From UHGV virus genome UHGV-0235457: a stretch of DNA of 38,103 nucleotides; one strand, 5' to 3'. This DNA comes from a virus. The notes beneath the pieces were generated by a model that worked only from the letters and a program-made list of their open reading frames with translations, did no database searches and was not told where the DNA came from. Below, piece after piece: positions 21,197 to 38,083 of this stretch. Positions within the stretch are counted from its first letter, which is position 1; each line of letters starts with the position of its first letter. A program made the translations under genes and the position numbers.

Positions 21197-22033
21197 TCAG
21201 AAGTCAGCCAGCTGGTCGGAGGCTGCGCCCGTTGCGGTGAACCGGTTCTGCGGATCGCCGTCCTGCGTGCGCAGTTTTTCCTTCAGTGCTGCCAGCTCTG
21301 TGGTCAGTGACGTAATTTTCTGGCGGTCCTGCTGATGGCGGGTTTCCAGCACATTAAAACGGTCGATAATGTCGGCCTGTGACGTTGCGACGCCTTCCAC
21401 CGCTTCCTGAATACGGGAAAAACTGGCGTCATCCGCTTTGCGGCCACGGCCAATAATTCCCATTACGCGGTTAAACCACTGGGTGCCTTCTTCCTGGCGT
21501 TGTTCTGCCATTTCGATGATTTCAGACTCGATGGCTTCGGAGATAAGCGGTGCTTCACCCTGGATACTGTTGAACGTCATCACTGCCTGACGTTGCTGTG
21601 CCGTGAATTTCAGGCGCTCAGTGCCCAGGCTTGCCGGGGTGTCGGTCATCGCCAGCCCGACCAGATAGGCGCGCCCGTTAACGGAGAACTGCGGGTGCAG
21701 TTCGATACTGGAATAGATTTTCTTGCCGTCAGCGACAAGCTGCTTCATGCGCTCGGTCGGTTCGATTTCTGCATACAGCGCAGTACGTCCGGCCAGCGGG
21801 CCTTCCGTAATATCTTCCGTACTCAGCGCGGTGACATCGCCCATTGCGGAAAATTCGCTTGACGGGCATGGCGAGAGATAGTGCTCAACGTTCACGCGGG
21901 CAGCGTAAACATCCGGGTTGAAGTTCTCGGCAGCTTCACGCAGATGTACCGGACTGATTTCGCGTCCATCAACAGTTGATCCGGAGACAGCCACGCGAAA
22001 CTTTTTGCGGGATGTCTTTTTTTCATTAGCCAT
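21197..22033 (-). CDS. Capsid scaffolding protein gpO-like
   Basis: Start set at ATG 22033 (GAGGGG RBS) rather than 22066; KKFRVAVSGSTVDGREIS resembles P2 O N-terminus as recalled. Confidence 0.8.
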   Translation of the reverse strand: MANEKKTSRKKFRVAVSGSTVDGREISPVHLREAAENFNPDVYAARVNVEHYLSPCPSSEFSAMGDVTALSTEDITEGPLAGRTALYAEIEPTERMKQLVADGKKIYSSIELHPQFSVNGRAYLVGLAMTDTPASLGTERLKFTAQQRQAVMTFNSIQGEAPLISEAIESEIIEMAEQRQEEGTQWFNRVMGIIGRGRKADDASFSRIQEAVEGVATSQADIIDRFNVLETRHQQDRQKITSLTTELAALKEKLRTQDGDPQNRFTATGAASDQLADF

Positions 22034-22187
22034 AGTTTTTGCCCCTCTGACTGGTTCTTCAGTCATGATGGCAAAGCGTAACAGGCTGATACAAAGGGCT
22101 TTTGTTGTAAGAAAACGGCCAGAACAGGGGGTTAAGGAGAACGGTTTCGCGCGCGGGTAATCTTCCTGTAATTACTCAGGGGGAGCA
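22034..22187. promoter_or_regulatory. Divergent late promoter region between scaffold and terminase operons
   Basis: 154 bp non-coding between divergent starts; by synteny with P2 PP/PO; no motif asserted. Confidence 0.35.
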
Positions 22188-23939
22188 ATGATTCAGGACG
22201 CTTTTGTGCGCCAGCGTGCGCGTCAACTTTACTGGCAGGGTTATCCGCCCGCAGAAATATCACGTCTGATGGGAATAAACCCGAACACGATTTATGCGTG
22301 GAAAAAACGCGACCAGTGGGATGAAACGCCACCCGTGCAGCGTGTCACGCAGTCCATCGATGCGCGCCTCATCCAGCTCACTGAAAAACAGAATAAAACA
22401 GGTGGTGACTTCAAGGAAATAGACCTGCTGACCCGGCAGCTTAAAAAACTGCATGATGGCCAGCCGGATGCGGCGGCCACAGGAAAGAAAGGCCGGGCGA
22501 AAAAACTCAAAAATCATTTCACGCCGGAACAGATTGCCGCACTGCGGGAAAAAATCATCAGCAGGCTGGAGTGGCATCAGCGGGGCTGGTTTGACTCCCT
22601 GACCCTTTGCAGGGAAGCCGGGATACGTAACAGGATGATCCTGAAATCCCGACAGATTGGGGCGACCTGGTATTTTGCACAGGAAGCTCTGCTGATGGCG
22701 CTGCGTGACGATGTGGCGCAACCTTACCAGCGTAACCAGATTTTTTTGTCTGCTTCGCGTCGTCAGGCGTTCCAGTTTAAAAGCATTATTCAGAAGGCTG
22801 CGGCTGAAGTTGATGTGGAGCTGAAAGGGGGCGATAAAATCATCCTCTCCAACGGCGCAGAGCTGCATTTTCTCGGCACTTCTGCTGCGTCGGCACAGTC
22901 CTATACGGGCAATTTTTATTTTGATGAATTTTTCTGGGTCAGTCGCTTTGCTGAACTGCGCAAGGTGGCTGGCGCTATGGCAACCCTCAGCGGACTGCGG
23001 CGCACCTACTTCTCCACGCCATCCACCGAAACGCACGAGGCATACGCCTACTGGAACGGCGACCGCTGGAACGAGAAAAAGGCCTCGCATAAACGCCAGC
23101 GTTTTTCTGTTGACTGGAAAACGCTGCATAACGGGCTTATCTGCCCTGACCGGACGTGGCGGCAAATTGTCACGCTGGAAGATGTGGTTAATCACGGCTG
23201 GAAACACACCGATATTGACGAAATCCGTGATGAAAACACCGAAGACGAGTTCCTCAATCTCTATATGTGTGAGTTTGTCCGCGAAGGGGAATCGGCATTT
23301 AACCTGAATATCCTGATTGGCTGCGGTGTTGACGGATACGACGACTGGAAAGACTGGAAACCTTTTGCTCCCCGCCCGATGGGGAATCGGGCGGTATGGA
23401 TTGGGTATGACGCAAACGGCAGCAGTGGCAACGGCGACAGCGGCGCTGTGTCCGTGGTGGTTCCTCCGGCTGTTCCTGGTGGCCGTTTTCGAACGGTGGA
23501 GACGCGACGCGTTCAGGGGCTGGAGTTTGAAGAACAGGCCAGAGTCATTGAAGAGTTCACGTGTCGCTACAACGTGGAACACATCGGCATTGATGTGACG
23601 GGCGGGAACGGGGAGGCTGTTTATCAGATAGTGAAACGGTTTTTCCCTGCTGCTATTCCGTACACCTTCACGCTGTCATCAAAACGGTCGCTGGTACTGA
23701 AAATGCTGCAAATAATGCGTGCCGGGCGGTGGGAATACGATCGCGCCGAACGCGAGCTGGTCGCGGCCTTTAACGCCGTGCGTAAGGTGAAAACACCGGG
23801 CGGCTTTATCACTTACGAAACGGACCGCGCGAGGGGGATCAGCCACGGCGACCTTGCGTGGGCAACCATGCTTGCTGTCATTAACGAACCGATTGGCGGC
23901 GAAGGAGAAAACGAGCGTTTCACGGTTATGGAGTTCTGA
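22188..23939 (+). CDS. Terminase large (ATPase) subunit gpP-like
   Basis: 583 aa; GGGGGAG RBS. Confidence 0.9.
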   Translation: MIQDAFVRQRARQLYWQGYPPAEISRLMGINPNTIYAWKKRDQWDETPPVQRVTQSIDARLIQLTEKQNKTGGDFKEIDLLTRQLKKLHDGQPDAAATGKKGRAKKLKNHFTPEQIAALREKIISRLEWHQRGWFDSLTLCREAGIRNRMILKSRQIGATWYFAQEALLMALRDDVAQPYQRNQIFLSASRRQAFQFKSIIQKAAAEVDVELKGGDKIILSNGAELHFLGTSAASAQSYTGNFYFDEFFWVSRFAELRKVAGAMATLSGLRRTYFSTPSTETHEAYAYWNGDRWNEKKASHKRQRFSVDWKTLHNGLICPDRTWRQIVTLEDVVNHGWKHTDIDEIRDENTEDEFLNLYMCEFVREGESAFNLNILIGCGVDGYDDWKDWKPFAPRPMGNRAVWIGYDANGSSGNGDSGAVSVVVPPAVPGGRFRTVETRRVQGLEFEEQARVIEEFTCRYNVEHIGIDVTGGNGEAVYQIVKRFFPAAIPYTFTLSSKRSLVLKMLQIMRAGRWEYDRAERELVAAFNAVRKVKTPGGFITYETDRARGISHGDLAWATMLAVINEPIGGEGENERFTVMEF

Positions 23940-24985
23940 TGAGCAGAAAAAATAAAAAAGTGCGAATGAGTTCACGCATTGATCTCGCTGATGCGCTCAG
24001 GAAAGAATCATCGCTCAGTGCATTCACATTTGATGGTCCTTATCGCCTGACCGGGCATGACCTGCTGGACAATATGTACTGTGCTGATAACGGGCGGTGG
24101 TATGAAACCCCGGTGGACTGGTACGGTCTGGCAAGAGCAGCCCGGCAAACGTCCTGGCATCAGTCTGCGCTTTACTTTAAGCGCAATGTATTACTCGGTT
24201 GCTACATCCCGCACCCGCTGCTTTCCCGGCAGGATTTCTCGGCGCTGGCGCTGGACTGGTTTGTGTTCGGTAACGCATTCCTTGAGCTTAGAAGCAATAT
24301 GCTCGGCGAACCGCTTAAATTACGGCACGCACTGGCGAAATACATGCGACGCGGAAGCGATCTTGAATCATGGTGGTATGTGCAGGATGGCAAGGACGCG
24401 TTCCAGTTTCGCCCTGGCAAAGTGTGCCACCTGATAAATCCGGATATTAACCAGGAAATTTACGGCATGCCGGAATATCTTGGCGCATTACTCTCGGCCA
24501 GCCTGTCTCATTCGGCGGACATGTTCAGAAAACTGTATTACGACAATGGATCCCACGCCGGGTGCATCATCTACATCGGAGCAGCGCAGGTAAACCGCGA
24601 AAGCATGGACTCCCTGAAAGAAACGTTACAGGGTGCGCGTGGTGGTGGCGCGTTTAAAAACGTGCTCATCCATGCGCCCAACGGGGGCAAAGAGGGGGTG
24701 CAAATTTTGCCGTTCCAGCAGATCACCGCAAAGGATGAGTTCATGAATGTTAAGGCGGCATCCCGTGATGATGTGCTGGCTGCGCACCGCGTTCCGCCGC
24801 AACTGATGGGGGCGATGCCGGGCGAAAAAAGTGCGTTTGGTGATGTGGAGAAGGCCGCGCGGGTTTACGCAATTAACGAGCTGATGCCCGTCATGGAGGC
24901 CATGAAGCACATCAATGACTGGCTTGGCGAAGAGGTGATCCGCTTTAACCCTTACGCACTGTTAGACACCCAGCCCACATCCTGA
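23939..24985 (+). CDS. Portal protein gpQ-like
   Basis: 348 aa; start overlaps terminase stop (TGATG). Confidence 0.85.
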   Translation: MSRKNKKVRMSSRIDLADALRKESSLSAFTFDGPYRLTGHDLLDNMYCADNGRWYETPVDWYGLARAARQTSWHQSALYFKRNVLLGCYIPHPLLSRQDFSALALDWFVFGNAFLELRSNMLGEPLKLRHALAKYMRRGSDLESWWYVQDGKDAFQFRPGKVCHLINPDINQEIYGMPEYLGALLSASLSHSADMFRKLYYDNGSHAGCIIYIGAAQVNRESMDSLKETLQGARGGGAFKNVLIHAPNGGKEGVQILPFQQITAKDEFMNVKAASRDDVLAAHRVPPQLMGAMPGEKSAFGDVEKAARVYAINELMPVMEAMKHINDWLGEEVIRFNPYALLDTQPTS

Positions 24986-25476
24986 CGCGCTTCGCTTGTC
25001 TGCTGCTTCGCCGGGGCATAAAAAATTTATGCCCCGACTCTCCAGCTCCTGTATCAGTCAGATAATTTCACGACGCCTTCCGGTTTATCGCCACCATCGA
25101 CGGTCAGACTCTTACGCAATCCCACCGCGTTGACTGCATGTTCTCGCCGCCTCAGTGCGATTTTGACGGCCTTACCTTTCACCCCATCAAATCAGAATCC
25201 CTCACGTCTTTTTCACGCTCAGCGTGAGAAATACGGCCATTCTGTCGTGTCGCTGCGACATCGTTAAGGGAACGCTATTTACCCCCTGAAACGCGGGCTG
25301 TTCCCCCGTCACCTGCGCGCAGAAAAAACGCGTTTTTTTGTGCACGCACGGATCCTTGACGGATCCAGCCGCCACGCGGGCTGGAAGGGTAAAAAGTCGT
25401 TCAAAAAAATTGTGCAAATTTGTGCACTATTGTGCATTGAAATAAACGCCCTGGAAGAGGGCGTTTTGGCTCATTT
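24986..25476. other. Non-coding region expected to contain cos, between portal gene and end of the early/accessory operon
   Basis: Position equivalent to cos in the P2 prophage map; palindromes present (GGGGCATAAA-N3-TTTATGCCCC at 25017-25039); exact cos ends not identified. Confidence 0.3.
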
Positions 25477-25818
25477 CTATAGCTTTGATGCAGGCTGGGC
25501 TAGATGTAAGGGTTGGACATACCAGCCTTTTGATAACCAACTCTCTGCAACATCTTTACTCCTTGTTATTGCTGGTATTCCGATGCCGTTATTTACATGC
25601 ATCCATGCTACTGGCTCTGCTTCCAGCGATGCCAGCACAATTCGTGCCAGCTCACGCACTACTTCCGGGGGCGCGTAACGGTCATTCAGGTCATCCCACA
25701 GGCGTAGCATGTTATCGCTACCAGGGTGAACATCCTCGTTAGTTCCGGCAAGCGCACTAATAACCTCATCGGCTGCCTCAATAATTTTCAGAGCTTGTTC
25801 TCTGGTAATAGTGGTCAT
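25477..25818 (-). CDS. Hypothetical protein, last gene of accessory operon
   Basis: 113 aa; 4-bp overlap with upstream gene. Confidence 0.55.
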   Translation of the reverse strand: MTTITREQALKIIEAADEVISALAGTNEDVHPGSDNMLRLWDDLNDRYAPPEVVRELARIVLASLEAEPVAWMHVNNGIGIPAITRSKDVAESWLSKGWYVQPLHLAQPASKL

Positions 25819-26024
25819 TTGTTAATCCTCAAAACTTTATGCCCGGGCGCAAAAGCACGCGTTTTGTCTTGACTTATTCGCCACCCGTCTTTACGGGCCT
25901 CTTTTGCACAGCCAGCCCATGACGTACCGATATATTCACCAAAGTCTGGCGTTTGATATTTACCATTTGTACACTGGCGACAATCACAATAGAGATGCAT
26001 GGTGTAACTTGCGGCAATAGCCAT
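25815..26024 (-). CDS. Hypothetical small Cys-containing protein (CxCxxC)
   Basis: 69 aa; translationally coupled to neighbours. Confidence 0.5.
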   Translation of the reverse strand: MAIAASYTMHLYCDCRQCTNGKYQTPDFGEYIGTSWAGCAKEARKDGWRISQDKTRAFAPGHKVLRINK

Positions 26025-26025
26025 A

Positions 26026-26340
26026 TCAGTCTCCTTTGATGCCAGTGTTTACAACCTGACAAGCCTCTTTGAGCACCCAGTCAACAGCGTCTTTCCATGC
26101 TCCGGTTTCGGCTGGCGGATTCTCACGCTTTACCAGTTCATAGAAATGTACTGCTCTAACCAGTCCATCTGACGGTTTTGCCTGTAGTGCAGCCTGAGCT
26201 ATGCGGTATGCCTGGAGCATACGGGCGTCGTTGATATCCATTCCGAACGGAATTTCTGATGATTGTGACTCTGCATCTTCAAGCCTGGCAATTTCTTTAC
26301 GTAAGAAGTATTTCAACTCTTGTTTCTGTTTTCTGTTCAT
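26026..26340 (-). CDS. Hypothetical protein
   Basis: 104 aa; overlaps upstream gene stop. Confidence 0.5.
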
Positions 26341-26669
26341 GCGTTTTTTTCCTTTTTGTCTGTCACTTCTTTCCTGATAATTTCATTGCACAAATCCACG
26401 CACTCATTGCAGATGTAAACAGACGGTCCGGCAATCACCTTTGTGACTTCGTACTGGGATTTATTGCAGAAACTGCAATAAACCGTCTTCTCGCCTGAAG
26501 TCCATGTTTTGCTGGTTTCGCCAGACATCAGTTGTTTGAGGTCTTTTTCACGACGAAGAACTATCTGGCCACATTCAGCTATTTTTTGGATGTTGACATT
26601 TTCTTCTTTCGCCAGCGCTTCCATCCGCTCAATCAGTCGCTGCGCTTTTTCTCTGTCAATGTGTTGCAT
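26337..26669 (-). CDS. Protein with C-terminal ClpX-type zinc-binding domain
   Basis: [38 protein letters not shown] closely parallels the ClpX N-domain C4 motif as recalled; AAGGGGGA RBS. Confidence 0.75.
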
Positions 26670-26732
26670 TGTGTCCCCCTTGTTTATGCTCCCGGGTTAA
26701 AGTCATCAGGGCGGATGCGCCCTGATGTTGTG

Positions 26733-27044
26733 TTATTCGGGAAATAACGCCCGGATATTTCCGGCCATCTGACTGGTTATCTGTGCGGCTGATACTGGCT
26801 GTGACGCGGGGCGTTCTGTCCTGGTTTGTGTCATTGATAACGCCTCATCATCAGCCCATGCAGCCAGTCGGTAAGCCTCTGCCGGATTCATTTTCAGTAG
26901 TGCCAGCCCGGCCAGAAAAGCCACGCGTTGACCACTTTTGCGGGCTTCTGGTGTAAGGCTGTCCAGCCAGGCGCATGCTTCGCCTTCGTTCTTGACGGCG
27001 GCGGGCTTCAGATAGAAACTTATCCGTCTGGTTGGTGTCGTCAT
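26733..27044 (-). CDS. ParR-like centromere-binding adaptor
   Basis: Internal ATG 27044 with AAGGAG; RRISFYLKP, LDSLTPEARK, FLAGLAL and C-terminal IRALFPE parallel plasmid R1 ParR as recalled. Confidence 0.6.
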   Translation of the reverse strand: MTTPTRRISFYLKPAAVKNEGEACAWLDSLTPEARKSGQRVAFLAGLALLKMNPAEAYRLAAWADDEALSMTQTRTERPASQPVSAAQITSQMAGNIRALFPE

Positions 27045-27048
27045 TGGT

Positions 27049-28008
27049 TTACTCCTTGTCCATTGCGTACAGCCCATTAACCAGAGCAAACTGTGGCACC
27101 CCGTCCGCGATGAAAGTCGCATTAACTCCGCAGGCTTCGCGGATAGCGGGTGCCACAATCTCTGCCCCGCCACCGACAACCATCACCCGCCCGTAACCCG
27201 AAAAACCCGCCAGCGCGCGGATCACGCGTTGTTTCAGTGTTTCTTCCTTTTCACGAATAACCGCCATCAGGCTGGCGTAATGCGCGTCATTGTGGATGTG
27301 CTGGCGCAGCCAGGCTTCATCATGGCGATGTTCGATAATGGTATTGGCGATGTGGTGACTGGTACGCATACCGTTAGTGGCCATCACCGACAGTACGGCA
27401 TCGGCCATCAGGGAAACGCCTACGTGTGGATCGCAAAACACCTGGCTGATACCTGCCAGTTGTCCCTGAACCTTTGCCACATCCAGCGTGGTTCCGCCTA
27501 AATCCACAATCAGCAGGGATTCAAACGGACTCATGTCAGCCAGTGCTTTAAAACCAGCCGGTATGGATTCAGGCATAACCCGTACGTTACGGATAGTGAA
27601 TGCTTTTCCGTTCTGGTACGCCACCGGGCGCATGACGTTTGCTTTTTTGCGGTTGATGTTGGCTATGTCCGGCTGTGCGTTTGTGTCGAAATACTCGCTC
27701 AGTGGCAGGGTGACAACCACATCCACCTCCTGTGGCGTGATGCCTGATTTGACCAGCGCGTGATGAATGGCAATGACATTCACATCGCTGTACTGGTATT
27801 GCGTATCGGTCGTCTGGACAAAGCGATCGCTGACCGGATCAAAACCATAGCGCACGCCATCAAGCATGTAGTTCGCGGGCTGCGTGCCACCGAACGGCGC
27901 AGACCATTCCGACTTGAAGCTGTTCGGGCTGATGGCGTTGCGGCGTTCGCCGTTCTCAGTCCATGCCAGCTTGATGTTGGTGGAGCCGTCGTCGATACAA
28001 ATTTTCAT
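27049..28008 (-). CDS. ParM/StbA-like actin-family ATPase
   Basis: IDDGSTNIKL (phosphate 1), DLGGTTLD (phosphate 2), VVGGGA (adenosine) motifs; 319 aa; N-terminus parallels R1 ParM as recalled. Confidence 0.75.
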   Translation of the reverse strand: MKICIDDGSTNIKLAWTENGERRNAISPNSFKSEWSAPFGGTQPANYMLDGVRYGFDPVSDRFVQTTDTQYQYSDVNVIAIHHALVKSGITPQEVDVVVTLPLSEYFDTNAQPDIANINRKKANVMRPVAYQNGKAFTIRNVRVMPESIPAGFKALADMSPFESLLIVDLGGTTLDVAKVQGQLAGISQVFCDPHVGVSLMADAVLSVMATNGMRTSHHIANTIIEHRHDEAWLRQHIHNDAHYASLMAVIREKEETLKQRVIRALAGFSGYGRVMVVGGGAEIVAPAIREACGVNATFIADGVPQFALVNGLYAMDKE

Positions 28009-28032: not shown

Positions 28033-30924
28033 TTAATCGGTTACAGGATTTTTAAATCCCGCTTTTGCCTGTTTTGTGCGCGCTTCATATATCGCGGCAC
28101 GTTTTTGCTCATTTACGGGATTTGTGAGTCCCGTTTCTGTCTGTTTTTTGTTTCCACTGGTCAGGCTACCCCGCAGCAGGTCTGCTTTGCGGCGGGCGCG
28201 TTCAGTGGTTTCACTGATTCTCTGTGCGTGCTCTGCGTCACGGATGGCGCGCAGCATGTCAGAAAGCATGGTAACGGGGGTTTTCATGGTGTTCTGGCCC
28301 TGCTGAAGTGTGGATGCCAGGCGTGCGGTGGCTTCGGGGTCTGATGCCCCCAGCTGTTCCAGATAGCTGGCGACCGGGTTATGGCGGATCTCCGTGCTGC
28401 TTACGCCGTGGTTACGGCTCAGACGCTGCCAGAGCTGCGTGATCCGGCTGTCCGGTCGGGTATCCGGTTTGCGTACAATTTCAAATCCCTGAGGTGCAAT
28501 GATGCTGCCGTCAACGTACAGACTGCCGCCCCGTAACAGGTGCTGCATCTGCTGTTCACCGATATGCAGGCCGAGAGATTCAGCAGACTCCCGCCATTCT
28601 TTAGCGAGTAATTCGTGGTTATCAGGCAAAGGCCGCTGCTGTTTGCGGCTCTGTGTCCAGCTCTGCATTTCATCACTGCTGTTTTTTGCCTGTTTGTCAC
28701 GAAGCGAACGCATCAGCGCCCGGCGTTCGTGCCGTTTCAGTGAGCGCATCCATTCGTTCACTTCAACGCCGTCAAGGAGCTGCGGCCATGGTGCTGGCCG
28801 TTCTTCCGGCTGTTCTGTCCCGTTGTTGTCCGTTTCCTGTACACGGGGACAGTTATTGCCACGAGTCCAAGGGGCGGCAGGGCCGCCCTGAAGGTCAAAA
28901 CCATTTTCGCGGGCACTGTCTTCCGCTTCCGGTTTGCGTCTTACCAGCTTCCAGTTATCCGGATGCGTGCACACACGGGAGGATTCCCCGATGAGTGGTG
29001 ACCAGATCCCGTAAATCTGTACGCTCTGTTCGCCGTAATCGTTTAGCTCATCGGCGAGGTCGTAGGCGGTGCGAATCAGGTAGTCTTTGCGTGGAACAAG
29101 TACGCCGCCCTGTTTCTCTATGTAGGTGGCAAAACATCCGGCATCAGCGGCGGCAAGAACCGCATCCATTGCGTCATCCTTTAGCCGTTGCGGGCCTTCC
29201 GGGTTGCGTGCCATCTGGCTGGCAAGGCGGCGCAGTTCACGCCATACCTGGCGGGAGGGGATGCCAAAGAACTGGAACTGGCGGACCCGGTGAAGGCGCG
29301 CCCAGCCGATGGCGCGTTCCACGCTCTCGGCCATTGATTTTCCGGTTTCGTGGTCAACGCGTGGCTTGCCCGTTTTCGGGTCGATGCCATCCACGGCACG
29401 GCTGTCCAGGTTTTTCCCGATGTAGGTGGCGATGTAGCTGGTCGGTGTGCCTTTTGAGCCGTCGACGTACTCCGCCTTAAAGCGTGGGGTAATATCATCA
29501 CCCAGCTCGTGACGATCTTCCTGAATGGCAATATCGCGGGTGTGGGACACAATAGTGTCGATTTCTTCCGGATGAGCAAAGACCATCATATGCCAGTGCA
29601 CGGTGCCGTCATGGTGAGGCTCCACCGTGCGGATGCCATACCAGCGCAGGCCGTCGCGGTTCAGTTTCTTGCGGACCGCCGCAAAAAACGTGTTAACCAG
29701 GTAATCGCTGGAGTCGCGCATGGTGGCCCCGTTCCATTTGGGATTCGGATGACCGTTCTCTGTTGTGGCGTGGTATTTTGACGGGCAGGTGACAGTCAGA
29801 AACACCGCTTTGTCGCCACGGGCTTCGGCCAGAAGTTCCAGCCCCTTCATGGTGGCCATCATTTCTGCCTTACGGTGAACCGGGTTACTTACTCCCGCGT
29901 AATACACTGTCTCGAGATCAATCGTGAACCCATCTTCGTTTTCCAGCATGAAACTTTTCAGGAAATCGCGTGTTTTCTCGCGCTGTGCGCGAAACTCGCT
30001 TAATGCGTCCTGGCTCAGATAGGGCGATGTTTTTCTGGAAACCAGACAGGCGGCGCGGAGTTGTTCTTCTCTCCACTCGCAACGTAACAGCCACAGTTTG
30101 CGTTTCCACCATTCCGCACAGGTCAGGCGAAGGATTGCGCCCGGCAGCAGCTCCGTGTCCGGTCCGTTCCTCCGGTCTTTATCTGTTGTCAGTGCGTCAT
30201 AATGTGGAGGCATGATGTGCAGGTGTAACGCCATGCGGGCCAGCATCTGATACGCCTTCAGCGTTACATCCATGGTCAGTTCGCCATCGGTCGCGCCAAA
30301 GCCATCGCAGAGTTTTTCGAAGGTGCTGCTGAACATCGCCGCCGTCATGGTGGCCAGCGTCTGTATCTGGTGTTTGTTGAGCTGCGGCAGGTAAAGCAAA
30401 TCGTCCAGGCGTTCGCGTCCGGCAAGGGAGCGATAACCCGGTGTCAGCCAGCGCCCGTCAGTGCGATCCAGACGTTCGAATATTTTGCGCAGGGTTCCGC
30501 GTGTATAGCGTTCCGCCTGCCAGCTCTTTTTGCCTTTCTGACGATCGGCTTCCTGCTTCTTGCGCAGGAAAGAGAGGTGGCGGCTCAGAGGTTCTCGCAG
30601 ATAAACGGGAAGCACCTTCAGTGTGGCAAAGGCACGGGCTACCGGGTCTTGTTCTGTTGCCCGGCGCTTACTGATGATGCTCTGTGCCAGCTTTTCACGC
30701 TGTCCGGCTTCCTCAAGGGATGCCATGAGTTTTTTACCCATGGCGGATTGTGCGAAAAAGGCTTCTTCCTTCGCTTCCTGTTCTTCCTGTGCCCTTTTGT
30801 CCGCCTCAAGGTAGTAACGGATGGCGCGTTGCAGGTCGGTTTCAGTTTCCTGCCTGCGCTCCGTAAATCTGGCCGGATCAATAGCTGGTCGTGGTTCATT
30901 CCAGCTCCATGCAAACGCACTCAT
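28033..30924 (-). CDS. Rolling-circle replication initiator (P2 gpA-like); alternative GTG start at 30951
   Basis: HWHMMVF (HUH-like) and YIATYIGK motifs; ATG 30924 overlaps upstream stop (ATGA). Confidence 0.85.
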   Translation of the reverse strand: MSAFAWSWNEPRPAIDPARFTERRQETETDLQRAIRYYLEADKRAQEEQEAKEEAFFAQSAMGKKLMASLEEAGQREKLAQSIISKRRATEQDPVARAFATLKVLPVYLREPLSRHLSFLRKKQEADRQKGKKSWQAERYTRGTLRKIFERLDRTDGRWLTPGYRSLAGRERLDDLLYLPQLNKHQIQTLATMTAAMFSSTFEKLCDGFGATDGELTMDVTLKAYQMLARMALHLHIMPPHYDALTTDKDRRNGPDTELLPGAILRLTCAEWWKRKLWLLRCEWREEQLRAACLVSRKTSPYLSQDALSEFRAQREKTRDFLKSFMLENEDGFTIDLETVYYAGVSNPVHRKAEMMATMKGLELLAEARGDKAVFLTVTCPSKYHATTENGHPNPKWNGATMRDSSDYLVNTFFAAVRKKLNRDGLRWYGIRTVEPHHDGTVHWHMMVFAHPEEIDTIVSHTRDIAIQEDRHELGDDITPRFKAEYVDGSKGTPTSYIATYIGKNLDSRAVDGIDPKTGKPRVDHETGKSMAESVERAIGWARLHRVRQFQFFGIPSRQVWRELRRLASQMARNPEGPQRLKDDAMDAVLAAADAGCFATYIEKQGGVLVPRKDYLIRTAYDLADELNDYGEQSVQIYGIWSPLIGESSRVCTHPDNWKLVRRKPEAEDSARENGFDLQGGPAAPWTRGNNCPRVQETDNNGTEQPEERPAPWPQLLDGVEVNEWMRSLKRHERRALMRSLRDKQAKNSSDEMQSWTQSRKQQRPLPDNHELLAKEWRESAESLGLHIGEQQMQHLLRGGSLYVDGSIIAPQGFEIVRKPDTRPDSRITQLWQRLSRNHGVSSTEIRHNPVASYLEQLGASDPEATARLASTLQQGQNTMKTPVTMLSDMLRAIRDAEHAQRISETTERARRKADLLRGSLTSGNKKQTETGLTNPVNEQKRAAIYEARTKQAKAGFKNPVTD
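28041..28138. repeat. Two imperfect ~38-bp direct repeats, each with an internal near-palindrome, in the 3' end of the replication gene just upstream of the ParM-like gene
   Basis: TTACAGGATTTTTAAATCCCGCTTTTGCCTGTTTTGTG vs TTACGGGATTTGTGAGTCCCGTTTCTGTCTGTTTTTTG. Confidence 0.45.
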
Positions 30925-31310
30925 GGCTGGTATCCCGTCACGCGCTGCCACTCCTGCGAGAAGAGGGCGGAAAGGCGGTTAAATTCAGCGGTGTATTCAC
31001 TCAGCGAGGCACACCCGCCAGCAGTGCGATGCGCCAGCATTGCTGCAAATACGGAGGCCGGGGAGTCGTAATACGCCAGCAGTGATTCGCCGTGCGGTGT
31101 CAGGCAGTGCAACGCCAGTCCGTGTGGTGTGAAATCCACGCGGTAGCAGTCGTCTACTGTGAAATAAAGGGTGTCTGCATTCTCCGGTTTTGTGGTGCGT
31201 GCTCTGTTGTCACGACCACGGATGTAGAGATCAAATAACCCCTGAAGAACGGGAGCCAGACGGGTGTCCTGTGTGCGCACCCATCTTGTGAAGTCATGAG
31301 CGTCAATCAT
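30921..31310 (-). CDS. Hypothetical early protein
   Basis: 129 aa; translationally coupled to the replication gene. Confidence 0.55.
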   Translation of the reverse strand: MIDAHDFTRWVRTQDTRLAPVLQGLFDLYIRGRDNRARTTKPENADTLYFTVDDCYRVDFTPHGLALHCLTPHGESLLAYYDSPASVFAAMLAHRTAGGCASLSEYTAEFNRLSALFSQEWQRVTGYQP

Positions 31311-34290: not shown

Positions 34291-34695
34291 ATGAAAAATG
34301 ATATTGGTCAGCGGTTGCGTGAGGAAAGGGAAAGATTGGGACTTAGTCAAGTTGCCATGAGCGACATTGGTGGAGTCAAAAAGCTAACTCAGCTTAGATA
34401 TGAGAAAGGAGATAGCTTTCCTGATGCTGCGTATTTGGCAGCGCTGTCTCGTTTTGGCCTTGATGTTCAGTATGTTGTGTTGGGAATTCACTCACCTGAA
34501 ACTTATAACGATGATGAGCAGGAGTTGATTACTCGCTTTCGAGCAGCTTCGTTAGATGTGAAAAACGCGGTGATTGGGGCTTTAAAAGGTGCGATCAGTG
34601 AAAAGGAAACTCAGCCATCAGGACGTGAGTTAAATATTTCTGGTGGTAATAACCGTATCGCTGGTCGTGACTATAACGAAACTAAGGGTAGGTGA
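34291..34695 (+). CDS. XRE-family HTH repressor (immunity repressor candidate)
   Basis: 134 aa; N-terminal HTH (LGLSQVAMSDIGGVKKLTQLRYEKG); divergent from early operon, upstream of integrase. Confidence 0.75.
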   Translation: MKNDIGQRLREERERLGLSQVAMSDIGGVKKLTQLRYEKGDSFPDAAYLAALSRFGLDVQYVVLGIHSPETYNDDEQELITRFRAASLDVKNAVIGALKGAISEKETQPSGRELNISGGNNRIAGRDYNETKGR

Positions 34696-35743: not shown

Positions 35744-36745
35744 ATGTCGGTTCGTAAGATTCCATCAGGTAAATGGCTTTGCGAATGTTATCCCTACGGG
35801 GCATCGGGAAAACGCATTCGTAAACAGTTTGCGACAAAAAGTGAGGCGCTCTCTTATGAGCGCCGTTTAATGAATAGTAGAGTTGGAGACGAGTTTCAAG
35901 ATGGTTCTGGTCCTCGTCTTTCTGAGTTGATTGCTCGTTGGTTTGAGATGTACGGTAAAACCTTGTCCTCTGGTGCAGAGCGCAAAGTCAAACTTGAGGC
36001 GATTTGTTCCAGGCTGGGAGATCCATTTGCTTCTCAGTTTGACAAAAATATGTTTGCCACTTATCGGGAAAGAAGGCTATCAGGAGAATGGAATCCCAAG
36101 GGGAAGAAAAAACTTAGTGAAGCAACCGTTAATCGCGAGCAGTCATATCTACATGCTGTTTTTGCCGAACTGAAGCGCCTTGGGGAGTGGTCTGGTGAAA
36201 ACCCCCTGACTGGTATTCGCAAGTTTCGTGAGGAAGAAAAGGAACTGGCGTTTCTGTATGTAGATGAGATTGAACGCCTTCTGATTGCGTGTGATGAGTC
36301 ACGGAATAAAGATTTGGGGGTTGTTGTCCGTATTGGGCTTGCGACTGGTGCTCGGTGGAGTGAAGCAGAAGGATTAAAGCAATCTCAAGTACTGCCCGGT
36401 CGAATCACATTTGTTAAAACTAAAGGAAAGAAGAACCGCACTGTACCGATTTCACCTCAATTGCAGGCTATGCTTCCCAAAAAACGAGGAGCGCTATTTT
36501 CACCATGTTATGAGGCTTTTGACGCTGCAATTAAGAGAGCGAAGATCGAGCTTCCTGATGGGCAATTAACTCATGTGCTACGTCACACGTTTGCCAGTCA
36601 TTTTATGATGCGGGGCGGAAATATTCTTGTGTTGCAAAAAATACTGGGGCATAGCGATATAAAAATGACTATGCGTTATGCGCATTTTGCTCCAGGTCAT
36701 TTAGAGGCTGCTGTTGAATTGAACCCTTTTGACAATAGAGGGTAA
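35744..36745 (+). CDS. int: Tyrosine recombinase integrase, P2-like
   Basis: 333 aa; GKRIRKQF...SEA N-terminus, HVLRHTFASHF and MRYAHF motifs; adjacent to right att repeat. Confidence 0.9.
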   Translation: MSVRKIPSGKWLCECYPYGASGKRIRKQFATKSEALSYERRLMNSRVGDEFQDGSGPRLSELIARWFEMYGKTLSSGAERKVKLEAICSRLGDPFASQFDKNMFATYRERRLSGEWNPKGKKKLSEATVNREQSYLHAVFAELKRLGEWSGENPLTGIRKFREEEKELAFLYVDEIERLLIACDESRNKDLGVVVRIGLATGARWSEAEGLKQSQVLPGRITFVKTKGKKNRTVPISPQLQAMLPKKRGALFSPCYEAFDAAIKRAKIELPDGQLTHVLRHTFASHFMMRGGNILVLQKILGHSDIKMTMRYAHFAPGHLEAAVELNPFDNRG

Positions 36746-37036: not shown

Positions 37037-38083
37037 TCATTTTCTCTGGCCACCAACTACGGGCACTACTTTAACTTTTCGGTCATAGGCAGCTGTCTGT
37101 CGTGGGTTCTTATGCCCGGAAATTGCTTGCTTCTCTTCCAGGCTGCCTTCCAGATCAGAGATACCTTTTGCTTTCAGATCATGAAATGTGAAGTCTATTT
37201 GCAGATGAGGATATTTTTCCTGTGCTGCCGCTTTGACATCACGCCAACGAGAGTTAAAACCATCACGGGTATACTTGCCACCGGTAGTTTGATGAATCAC
37301 AAACAGGCTACTGATTCCCGTTTTTAATGGCAGAGAACGAGCCAGAGCTATCGCTTTCTGCAGACGAGGCGACCAGGCTTTGATTTGCTTAACGCCGGTT
37401 TTTCCCTGACGAATGTAGATCCCGGAATCGAACAGCTGGTCTTTCTGCAATGAAAGTACATCACTCTGTCTGGCCACGCATAAGTAGGCAATCTCCATTG
37501 CTACGCGAACAACATCAGGAGACACTTCATAAACGGCCTGATATTCTTCATCCGTAATATAGCGTTCGCGAGCTTTCTCTTTAAACTGTTTAACTCCCTG
37601 ACAAGGATTCCTCTGAACATAACCTCGTTCATAACCCCAACGGAATACCCGGGACATAAAGCTTTTTTCCCTGTTTGCCTGAGTTCGGCTTGATAAACCG
37701 CGTTGATCCATATAGCGCCGAATATGTTCAGGTTTGATTTTATCCGGGTCGATCTTCCCGAAGACAGGTAGAACTTTTCCGGAATATTTTGTGTAGTCTT
37801 TCCTGGTTTCGACTGCCAAATCCATAAAATCAGGGGAGGTCATGAATTGTTCCGTGAGCGCCTGAAAAGTATTTCTTTCTTTTTCGTCACCGACCGCTTT
37901 TTCATATGCCAGCCATACGGCTGATCGTGGCGCATCCAATGCGCACAGGCGTATCGCTTTGTTATCTTTATTCCTGAATTCGTAGGCCGCTTTGCCCTGG
38001 TAAACACGAGGCGGCATCCAGTTATCTGCTGGGTTCTTTCTCTTTCCGGCCATTAAATATTGCTCCAAAATCAGGTTCATCAT
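37037..38083 (-). CDS. Tyrosine recombinase integrase of a second integrative element
   Basis: 348 aa; HDLKAKG and AAYDR catalytic-region motifs; lies outside the right att repeat, 3' end facing the tRNA fragment. Confidence 0.8.
   Translation of the reverse strand: MMNLILEQYLMAGKRKNPADNWMPPRVYQGKAAYEFRNKDNKAIRLCALDAPRSAVWLAYEKAVGDEKERNTFQALTEQFMTSPDFMDLAVETRKDYTKYSGKVLPVFGKIDPDKIKPEHIRRYMDQRGLSSRTQANREKSFMSRVFRWGYERGYVQRNPCQGVKQFKEKARERYITDEEYQAVYEVSPDVVRVAMEIAYLCVARQSDVLSLQKDQLFDSGIYIRQGKTGVKQIKAWSPRLQKAIALARSLPLKTGISSLFVIHQTTGGKYTRDGFNSRWRDVKAAAQEKYPHLQIDFTFHDLKAKGISDLEGSLEEKQAISGHKNPRQTAAYDRKVKVVPVVGGQRK

Follow-up and report, generated by a model that had tools for sequence, protein, structure and literature searches.

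Type II partition systems of the kind carried by plasmids R1 and pB171 combine an actin-fold ATPase (ParM), an adaptor that binds the centromere (ParR, Pfam family Plasmid_stab_B) and is encoded directly downstream of parM, and a centromere (parC) directly upstream of parM, which in R1 is made up of ten iterons of 11 bp. A comparable pair, AlpAC/alpS, is encoded by the integrated prophage CGP3 of Corynebacterium glutamicum, where an actin-like protein and the DNA-binding adaptor transcribed together with it are induced early; this adaptor attaches to the upstream region of its own operon, and both proteins are required for efficient replication of the excised circular phage DNA on which they are proposed to act (PMC4446434). 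Among the P2-like phages of Escherichia coli, about a quarter were reported to carry a putative partition system in the hotspot between gpA and gpQ, a region whose 18,150 loci showed 1,650 arrangements (Rousset et al. 2022, PMC9122126). Here we examined UHGV virus genome UHGV-0235457, a stretch of 38,103 nucleotides (the window) in which six minus-strand genes fill this hotspot: parM, parR, a gene for a free-standing ClpX zinc-binding domain (ZBD) protein, and three small genes encoding proteins of 104, 69 and 113 aa. The window represents an integrated prophage of the P88-like type (genus Xuanwuvirus, Peduoviridae), reversed relative to the usual P2 map. At the locus a conserved type II partition module is combined with independently mobile hotspot cargo, a combination that is already known and catalogued.

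The same locus and the same genes are present in the earlier catalogue. Table S5A of that study (PMC9122126) includes the exact arrangement, given as StbA, Plasmid_stab_B, zf-C4_ClpX and three hypothetical proteins, and three of its accessions (WP_000211251, WP_001163782 and WP_122998051) recur in the annotation of CREC-591, whose identity to the window is 99%. In one part of Table S5A, StbA was listed 489 times and zf-C4_ClpX 43 times, in agreement with the 1,307 and 112 genomes counted below. The GenBank records of P88 and its relatives likewise annotate ParM, a partition protein and a ClpX-like gene. The study of Rousset et al. differs from the present analysis in being a catalogue, without a centromere, an analysis of modularity or a treatment of the ZBD gene. 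When the literature on phage ClpX ZBD proteins, Xuanwuvirus and ParM in P2-like phages was searched, the relevant work found was that of Rousset et al. and the CGP3 AlpAC papers.

A fixed partition module followed by exchangeable genes

A preliminary description of the window, made from its letters alone, had placed six coupled genes in the tin/old (gpA-gpQ) position of P2 and read them as one functional unit that matched no system with a name. The position was borne out by the collinearity of the window with P88 and by the published hotspot (PMC9122126). All six open reading frames (ORFs) were recovered within 25477-28008, and the ParM, ParR and ClpX-ZBD assignments were correct by Pfam and Protein Data Bank (PDB) matches:

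27049-28008, minus strand: parM, actin-like partition ATPase, 319 aa (Pfam StbA_N, 1.4e-81, and ParM C-terminal domain, 1.2e-68)
26733-27044, minus strand: parR, adaptor and centromere-binding protein, 103 aa, with its ATG at 27044 (Pfam Plasmid_stab_B, 2.5e-24; PHROG partition protein, 4e-58)
26704-26727, minus strand: stable hairpin in the parR-ZBD spacer (10-bp G+C-rich stem, -20.5 kcal/mol, z = -5.3, without a proper U tract)
26337-26669, minus strand: free-standing ClpX-ZBD protein, 110 aa (zf-C4_ClpX, 6.8e-18)
26026-26340, minus strand: 104-aa Ea22-like mosaic protein (PHROG 26213/660)
25815-26024, minus strand: 69-aa CxCxxC protein (PHROG 926, the phiV10 p52 / VT2-Sa p07 family)
25477-25818, minus strand: 113-aa Ea22-like mosaic fragment (PHROG 60/660, partial matches)
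25444-25466, minus strand: canonical intrinsic terminator just 3′ of the 113-aa gene, closing the string (9-bp G+C-rich stem followed by UUUAUUU, -14.8 kcal/mol, z = -3.9)

The tight coupling described for the string held at most junctions: parM lies 24 nt after gpA and 4 nt before parR (with AAGGAG inside the 3′ end of parM), the ZBD/104-aa and 69-aa/113-aa junctions are ATGA overlaps, and a single nucleotide separates the 104-aa and 69-aa genes. It did not hold between parR and the ZBD gene, which are 63 nt apart with the stable hairpin in between; this hairpin marks the module boundary, and it may be a leaky terminator or a stabilizer of an mRNA 3′ end.

Population structure was examined by scoring IMG/VR loci around relatives of ParM, the ZBD protein and the 69-aa protein for the six proteins together with gpA and the portal protein. 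The ParM-seeded set comprised 80 loci in which ParM was 98-100% identical to that of the window. Every one of these with a long enough contig carried gpA, ParM and ParR, while of the 80 loci 14 had the ZBD gene, 17 the 104-aa gene and one the 69-aa gene; all four downstream genes were missing from 37 of the 52 loci that reached a P88-type portal gene. Similarity between loci broke off at the parR stop codon, in many cases inside a hairpin or shortly beyond it, and the interval from this codon to the portal gene (0.99-4.2 kb) occurred in at least 65 distinct versions. Several of the variant loci have a textbook terminator just after parR. Alternative first genes after parR included those for a 196-aa Cys-rich protein (MSEINYQALRERY...CPICG...YACSG) and a 174-aa protein (loci L021, L072 and L114-L116), and the same group of loci (L021, L072, L114-L116) provided other inserts, namely a gene of the XF1762 family and a Doc/Phd-like toxin-antitoxin pair that faces the other way.

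The same structure emerged when 5,426 complete E. coli genomes were surveyed. Of these, 1,307 (24%) carried parMR with the upstream repeats, 112 carried the ZBD gene and 823 the 69-aa gene; the 3.1-kb region as a whole was covered to at least 80% in 72 genomes and in full, in the exact arrangement, in two. In eight loci (L022, L053, L060, L061, L063, L070, L071 and L226) the gpA-ParM-ParR block, with ParM 98-99% identical, was joined to a different portal gene (30% identity). Since the same block is joined to a different portal gene, the partition module travels with the replication module and not with the head module. The locus is thus likely to be a composite, in which a conserved partition backbone is followed after the parR stop codon by exchangeable hotspot cargo, rather than a single system. 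The cargo would probably be transcribed by read-through past the leaky hairpin.

Comparison of ParM and ParR with plasmid partition proteins

Phage ParM matched the PDB entry of R1 ParM at E = 1.6e-92 with 47% identity, and all its nucleotide-binding motifs (DDGSTN, PESIPAG, DLGGTTLD and GGGAE; phosphate-binding, catalytic and adenosine) were conserved relative to R1. ParM is under strong purifying selection, constrained like the portal protein: the ratio of nonsynonymous to synonymous polymorphism (pN/pS) was 0.07 for parM (89 alleles) compared with 0.03 for the portal gene (53 alleles). Being constrained in this way, ParM must be in use.

ParR was 33% identical over residues 1-61 to ParR of R1-like loci; a sequence search against solved structures found no relative of it. 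Two allele classes of ParR, 83-100% and 52-58% identical to the window copy, were found beside ParM that was 98-100% identical (loci L005-L084). Both classes keep (i) the N-terminal MTTPTRRISFYLKP, which aligns with the N-terminal DNA-binding domain of R1-like ParR; and (ii) NI(R/Q)A(L/F)FPE at the C terminus, beside a ParM that hardly varies. By analogy with R1, we take this C-terminal segment to be the ParM-binding tail. The linker between the conserved ends (residues ~66-95) is hypervariable and of low complexity.

A tblastn search with ParR returned only seven plasmid records, all of which also matched the P88-like region. A scan of genome contigs for independent phage ParMR lineages detected the phage-type ParM clade only at 97-99% identity, in Escherichia, in Salmonella and in a single record titled Vagococcus; the relatives of ParM that came next were at most 62% identical and had no gpA detected nearby. 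Enterobacterial-type ParM loci, of the P88-like prophage or R1-like parMR kind, were also seen in assemblies of unrelated Gram-positive taxa, including Vagococcus sp. WN89Y (L227), Streptomyces morookaense (L241) and metagenome-assembled genomes of Clostridiales/Lachnospiraceae (L242/L249). These are most likely due to contamination or mis-binning.

The similarities to R1/pB171-type ParMRC, namely an actin-fold ParM, a Plasmid_stab_B gene directly after it and repeats directly before it in two units about 72 bp apart (reminiscent of the iteron clusters of plasmid parC), point to parM-parR being a type II (R1 ParMRC-like) DNA-partition module fixed at the 3′ end of gene A in P88-like Peduoviridae. 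The phage module differs from its plasmid counterparts in that (i) it is chromosomal, in an integrating P2-family phage; (ii) its ParR is shorter, at 103 aa; and (iii) its candidate centromere has two palindrome-bearing units of 38 nt instead of 10 × 11-bp iterons and overlaps the end of gene A. Type II systems are carried by low-copy extrachromosomal replicons and secure their inheritance, whereas this phage is extrachromosomal only transiently.

A candidate centromere upstream of parM

The region immediately upstream of parM contains the following feature:

28041-28150, minus strand: candidate parC and promoter region, with two 38-nt direct repeats at 28041-28078 and 28113-28150

The palindromic cores of these repeats (28043-28062 and 28115-28134; consensus ACGGGAYTyxxRAATCCCGT) are 72-73 bp apart, and the motif occurs in the window at these two sites only, with 0 sites expected by chance. 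Exactly two copies were found in 121 of 121 ParM-positive loci and none in 10 ParM-less P2-like loci; as the loci belong to a single lineage, this association is weak evidence. In plasmid relatives of ParM, including R1-like contigs, two iteron clusters 62-94 bp apart were found at the same position, and because the clusters are placed in this way the layout of the phage repeats fits a parC that brackets a promoter. On balance it is probable, judging from position and spacing, that the two palindromic repeats constitute parC. A weak TTTAAA-N16-AATTAT match that overlaps the proximal palindrome was noted from reading the sequence by eye only.

Possible action of ParMR in an integrating phage

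Almost all copies of the module reside in chromosomes: among ParMR places in complete E. coli genomes, 1453 of 1455 were chromosomal. One circular E. coli "plasmid" record of 34,461 bp (NZ_CP148288.1, L225) is a complete P88-like genome with integrase, Cox, repressor, structural genes and ParMR. The record reflects either a genuine episome or an excised circle that the assembly picked up.

No evident sense-strand terminator was found between gene A and parM, so parMR are probably expressed with the early replication genes. ParR dimers would bind the two palindrome-bearing repeats upstream of parM and probably also repress a weak promoter located there, while ParM filaments would capture ParR bound to DNA and so drive the copies of the phage circle away from each other. 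Because the phage is almost always found integrated, the most likely substrate would be the extrachromosomal phage circle, either in the interval between infection and integration or once the prophage has excised and been replicated by gpA. What is partitioned and when, like ParR binding to the repeats, is inferred here. Action on the circle is favored over stable plasmid maintenance because AlpAC of CGP3 is the closest functional precedent, an integrated prophage in which a cytoskeletal pair is proposed to serve the excised circle. The two systems are likened by function and not by sequence comparison; they differ in gene order (alpA and alpC versus parM-parR), and the function of AlpAC was experimentally demonstrated, whereas the P88-like module is known from its sequence.

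A free-standing ClpX zinc-binding domain

ClpX's N-terminal ZBD is the docking site of several partners of the ClpXP protease. Lambda O, SspB, RssB and trigger factor bind a patch formed by residues F16 and I46 (PMC7804408), ClpX lacking the ZBD does not degrade sigma-S or lambda O (PMC7226468, PMC7804408), and the isolated ZBD inhibits ClpXP's RssB-mediated breakdown of sigma-S in vitro (PMC7226468). No study of a phage-encoded ClpX ZBD protein was found in the searchable literature.

The third gene of the string encodes a protein that matches the E. coli ClpX ZBD at E = 7e-20. In the AlphaFold2 model (mean confidence score, pLDDT, 81.5), a helical hairpin (residues 6-48) is connected by a flexible, disordered linker (53-59) to the ZBD (~62-105), and the modeled ZBD superposed by Foldseek on crystal structures of the E. 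coli ClpX ZBD (2DS5/2DS6/2DS8) with a root-mean-square deviation of 0.6-1.0 Å and 74-80% identity. Within the family, the four Cys ligands were invariant or nearly so, as were the residues aligned to F16 and I46. The C4 zinc site, fold and docking patch of the E. coli domain (PDB 1OVX, 2DS5-2DS8) are thus kept, but in place of the AAA+ module of ClpX the phage-encoded protein has an orphan helical hairpin of 50 residues on a flexible linker. The 110-aa protein lacks the AAA+ module and the ClpP-docking loops; since the NCBIfam clpX models match residues 60-108 only, far below their cut-offs, it is a ZBD-only protein and not a ClpX. A search for homologues of the N-terminal hairpin among 1.84 billion representative proteins returned 11 matches, essentially all from its own family.

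Homologues of the ZBD protein that were 44% (Salmonella) and 54% (E. coli) identical occupied the same gpA-portal slot in P2-like phages without ParMR, and in a distant phage (L125) the ZBD gene was preceded by a C-terminal remnant of ParR and a Doc/Phd pair, with no ParM. The protein is conserved in the gpA-gpQ slot of Escherichia and Salmonella P2-like phages, with or without ParMR; because its distant homologues occur without ParMR, the gene is tied to the slot and does not depend on the partition module. As to its action, a stand-alone ZBD with an intact docking patch would most plausibly titrate ZBD-dependent adaptors or substrates of host ClpXP; alternatively, it could deliver a partner bound by the orphan N-domain. 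We tentatively suggest, as a possibility that falls short of being probable, that the protein is an undescribed phage modulator of host ClpXP, either a decoy for SspB, RssB and ZBD-dependent substrates or a mimic that pairs with the ClpX ZBD to deliver a target. Both the decoy and the adaptor-mimic activity are inferred.

The 104-, 69- and 113-aa genes

The closest described relatives of the last three genes are lambdoid genes of the Ead/Ea22 region, such as orf45/46 of Stx2 phage 86 and p52 of phiV10, which share 90-95% nucleotide identity or protein modules with them; the genes of the window differ in lying in a P2-family hotspot and not in a lambdoid early-left operon. None of the three ORFs matched a Pfam or NCBIfam family, and all matched PHROG families of unknown function.

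The 69-aa protein is a promiscuous phage moron, mostly of lambdoid and other phages. Its gene was outside a P88-like context in 72 of 80 IMG/VR loci and was found in Stx2 phages, phiV10 (p52), other phages and phage-plasmids; among 980 places in E. coli genomes, 179 were on plasmid records, those listed being 58-98 kb in size. The CxCxxC motif noted in the preliminary description is real, with C13, C15 and C18 invariant in the family and APGHK conserved, and the gene is under purifying selection (pN/pS = 0.12).

The 104-aa protein consists of a variable N-terminal helix and a nearly invariant C-terminal module of 48 aa. Its 549 homologues, of many lengths, had only this C-terminal module in common, differed in their N-terminal and middle modules, and in some cases carried Pfam Ead_Ea22. 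The 113-aa protein shares its first ~70 residues with a 170-aa protein, P0229, and is without the C-terminal module; PGAP calls the 99%-identical copy of its gene in CREC-591 a pseudogene with a missing C terminus, and the gene is probably a truncated remnant. Neither the 104-aa nor the 113-aa protein matched the Pfam profile Ead_Ea22 (PF13935), although both have modules in common with longer homologues that carry it. As the modules match but the profile does not, they are mosaic relatives of Ea22 and not members of the profile. The three genes would thus be small Ea22-region morons, one of them probably a remnant.

P88 and the window differ here by an indel of 525 bp (window 25504-26028; L004 10835/10836). 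Because both ends of the indel lie inside ORFs, gp20 of P88 (112 aa) consists of the 104-aa protein continued by the final eight codons of the 113-aa ORF. The indel illustrates how modules are shuffled at short stretches of shared sequence.

Alternative explanations for the locus

The preliminary description took all six genes to be one co-functioning system, which might for example be a new defense system or a lysogeny control. The genes are on the same strand with two ATGA overlaps, spacers of 1-4 nt and a single terminal terminator, and the exact arrangement recurs in CREC-591, STEC388 and one IMG/VR contig. The co-occurrence data have nevertheless largely refuted this explanation: only two of the 1,307 ParMR-positive genomes have the exact arrangement, the neighborhood survey found the genes regularly apart in unrelated contexts, and each downstream gene was also found in loci that lacked the other three and ParMR. 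The 113-aa gene appears to be truncated, and in P88 two of the ORFs are fused by the 525-bp indel. When the six proteins were compared with the PADLOC-DB 2.0 defense profiles, five had no match at all and the sole match of the 104-aa protein (PDC-M28C, E = 0.008, 13 bits) was not significant. We consider a single six-gene system highly improbable. It is also incorrect that no part of the locus has a name, as ParMR belongs to the named type II ParMRC systems and its presence in the hotspot had been noted (PMC9122126). A narrower proposal is that ParMR and the ZBD protein work together, with the ZBD controlling turnover of ParR or ParM by ClpXP or tethering the segrosome to ClpX, and that the last three genes are unrelated. 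It draws on the finding that all 42 close ZBD homologues in IMG/VR (91-100% identity) lie directly after parR, on a 37%-identical homologue located after a type-2 ParR (L070), and on the ParR remnant that precedes the ZBD gene in L125. Against these stand the absence of the ZBD gene from ~91% of ParMR-positive E. coli genomes (112 compared with 1,307), the homologues at 44-54% identity in P2-like phages without ParMR, the lack of ParM in L125, and the 63-nt spacer with its strong hairpin. Such cooperation appears distinctly unlikely, and the composite of partition backbone and hotspot cargo is preferred.

The partition half of this composite has alternatives of its own. Rousset et al. suggested that the partition genes maintain the phage as a stable plasmid prophage (PMC9122126), and the circular 34.4-kb "plasmid" record that comprises a whole P88-like genome with ParMR is in keeping with this idea. 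Opposed to it are the chromosomal position of 1453 of the 1455 ParMR places and the integrase, repressor and Cox genes carried by these phages, the circular record included. Furthermore, rolling-circle replication of the gpA type is, to our knowledge of P2 biology, not a known mode of plasmid maintenance. Stable plasmid maintenance is therefore judged unlikely, and action on the transient circle is favored. The palindromes, for their part, could be RNA hairpins or antisense-oriented intrinsic terminators at the boundary of backbone and hotspot, with parC located elsewhere or absent. Each palindrome has a T-rich run after it on the plus strand and was scored there as intrinsic terminator-like, the sense-strand RNA hairpins were calculated at -9.0 and -8.8 kcal/mol, one variant of a palindrome arm still pairs in the sense RNA, though only as G-U, and there are only two units (compared with ten iterons in R1), palindromic rather than short direct iterons. 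Conversely, the palindromes strictly co-occur with ParMR, in position and in spacing (72-73 bp) they resemble the two iteron clusters of plasmid parC, and no other family of repeats was found near parMR, the TGCACAA repeats described below tracking portal type. A non-centromeric origin of the palindromes is a real possibility but the less probable one. Several of these findings count against the composite with a partition module and its centromere as favored here: the invariable placement of close ZBD homologues after parR, which possibly links them to ParMR; the small number of repeat units; the terminator-like plus-strand sequences; and the G-U variant. To these may be added that both ParR allele classes share the N-terminal strand and the same upstream repeats, making covariation uninformative; that scanning for consensus promoters gave none of the sigma-70 type for either parMR or the ZBD gene; and that partition activity, ParR binding and expression timing are predictions.

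Surroundings of the locus in the prophage

Phage P88 was found to be collinear with the window over nearly its whole length, and the six-gene region was 95-98% identical to P88, PhiR44_2, Shae_phiSM and other P2-family coliphages. The genes and repeats flanking the region, and those at the right end of the window, were located as follows:

21197-22066, minus strand: scaffold gene O
22188-23939, plus strand: terminase gene P
23939-24985, plus strand: portal gene Q
25410-25436, minus strand: three TGCACAA repeats phased at exactly 10 bp with a T run after them, lying between the cargo terminator and the cos/portal side
28033-30951, minus strand: replication gene A (gpA), the upstream neighbor of parM (Pfam Phage_GPA, 2.5e-131)
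34291-34695, right end of the window: repressor-like helix-turn-helix gene
35744-36745, right end of the window: the prophage's own integrase gene

Beyond portal gene Q, the order is a cos-proximal spacer, the six minus-strand genes and then gene A, whose product is 87-98% identical to gpA of P88-like phages and whose 3′ end overlaps the candidate centromere. An A5 tract at 28102-28106 of the window corresponds to A6 in most relatives, which shifts the frame of gene A. Because A5 replaces A6, gpA of the window runs through both palindromic repeats and stops 24 nt before parM, whereas the stop codon in P88 and most relatives is ~76 nt before parM; the C terminus of gpA is thus altered by a homopolymer polymorphism.

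The TGCACAA repeats were considered as an alternative centromere and rejected, as they track the P88-type portal, are missing from ParM-positive loci with the other portal and are present in ParM-less loci. Because they follow portal type and not ParM, they are probably a cos-side element for packaging or for binding of a host factor. A second tyrosine recombinase gene (37037-38083) was observed ~300 bp from the integrase gene and on the opposite strand; two neighboring tyrosine recombinases suggest that another integrative element abuts the prophage.

Implications for P2-like phages and their hosts

With the combination of genes already catalogued, the remaining interest of the locus lies in the role of ParMRC in an integrating phage and in the free-standing ClpX ZBD protein. 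A stand-alone adaptor-docking domain of ClpX is a plausible route by which a phage might rewire host proteolysis; if the protein does act as a decoy, sigma-S would be stabilized, or ClpX-dependent steps of competing phages such as Mu would be blocked. For the partition module, ~24% of complete E. coli genomes were found to carry an R1-type actin segregation machine in an integrating prophage, where it is under strong purifying selection. Its candidate roles include a higher efficiency of lysogenization, the organization of replication after induction as in CGP3, and an episomal carrier state.

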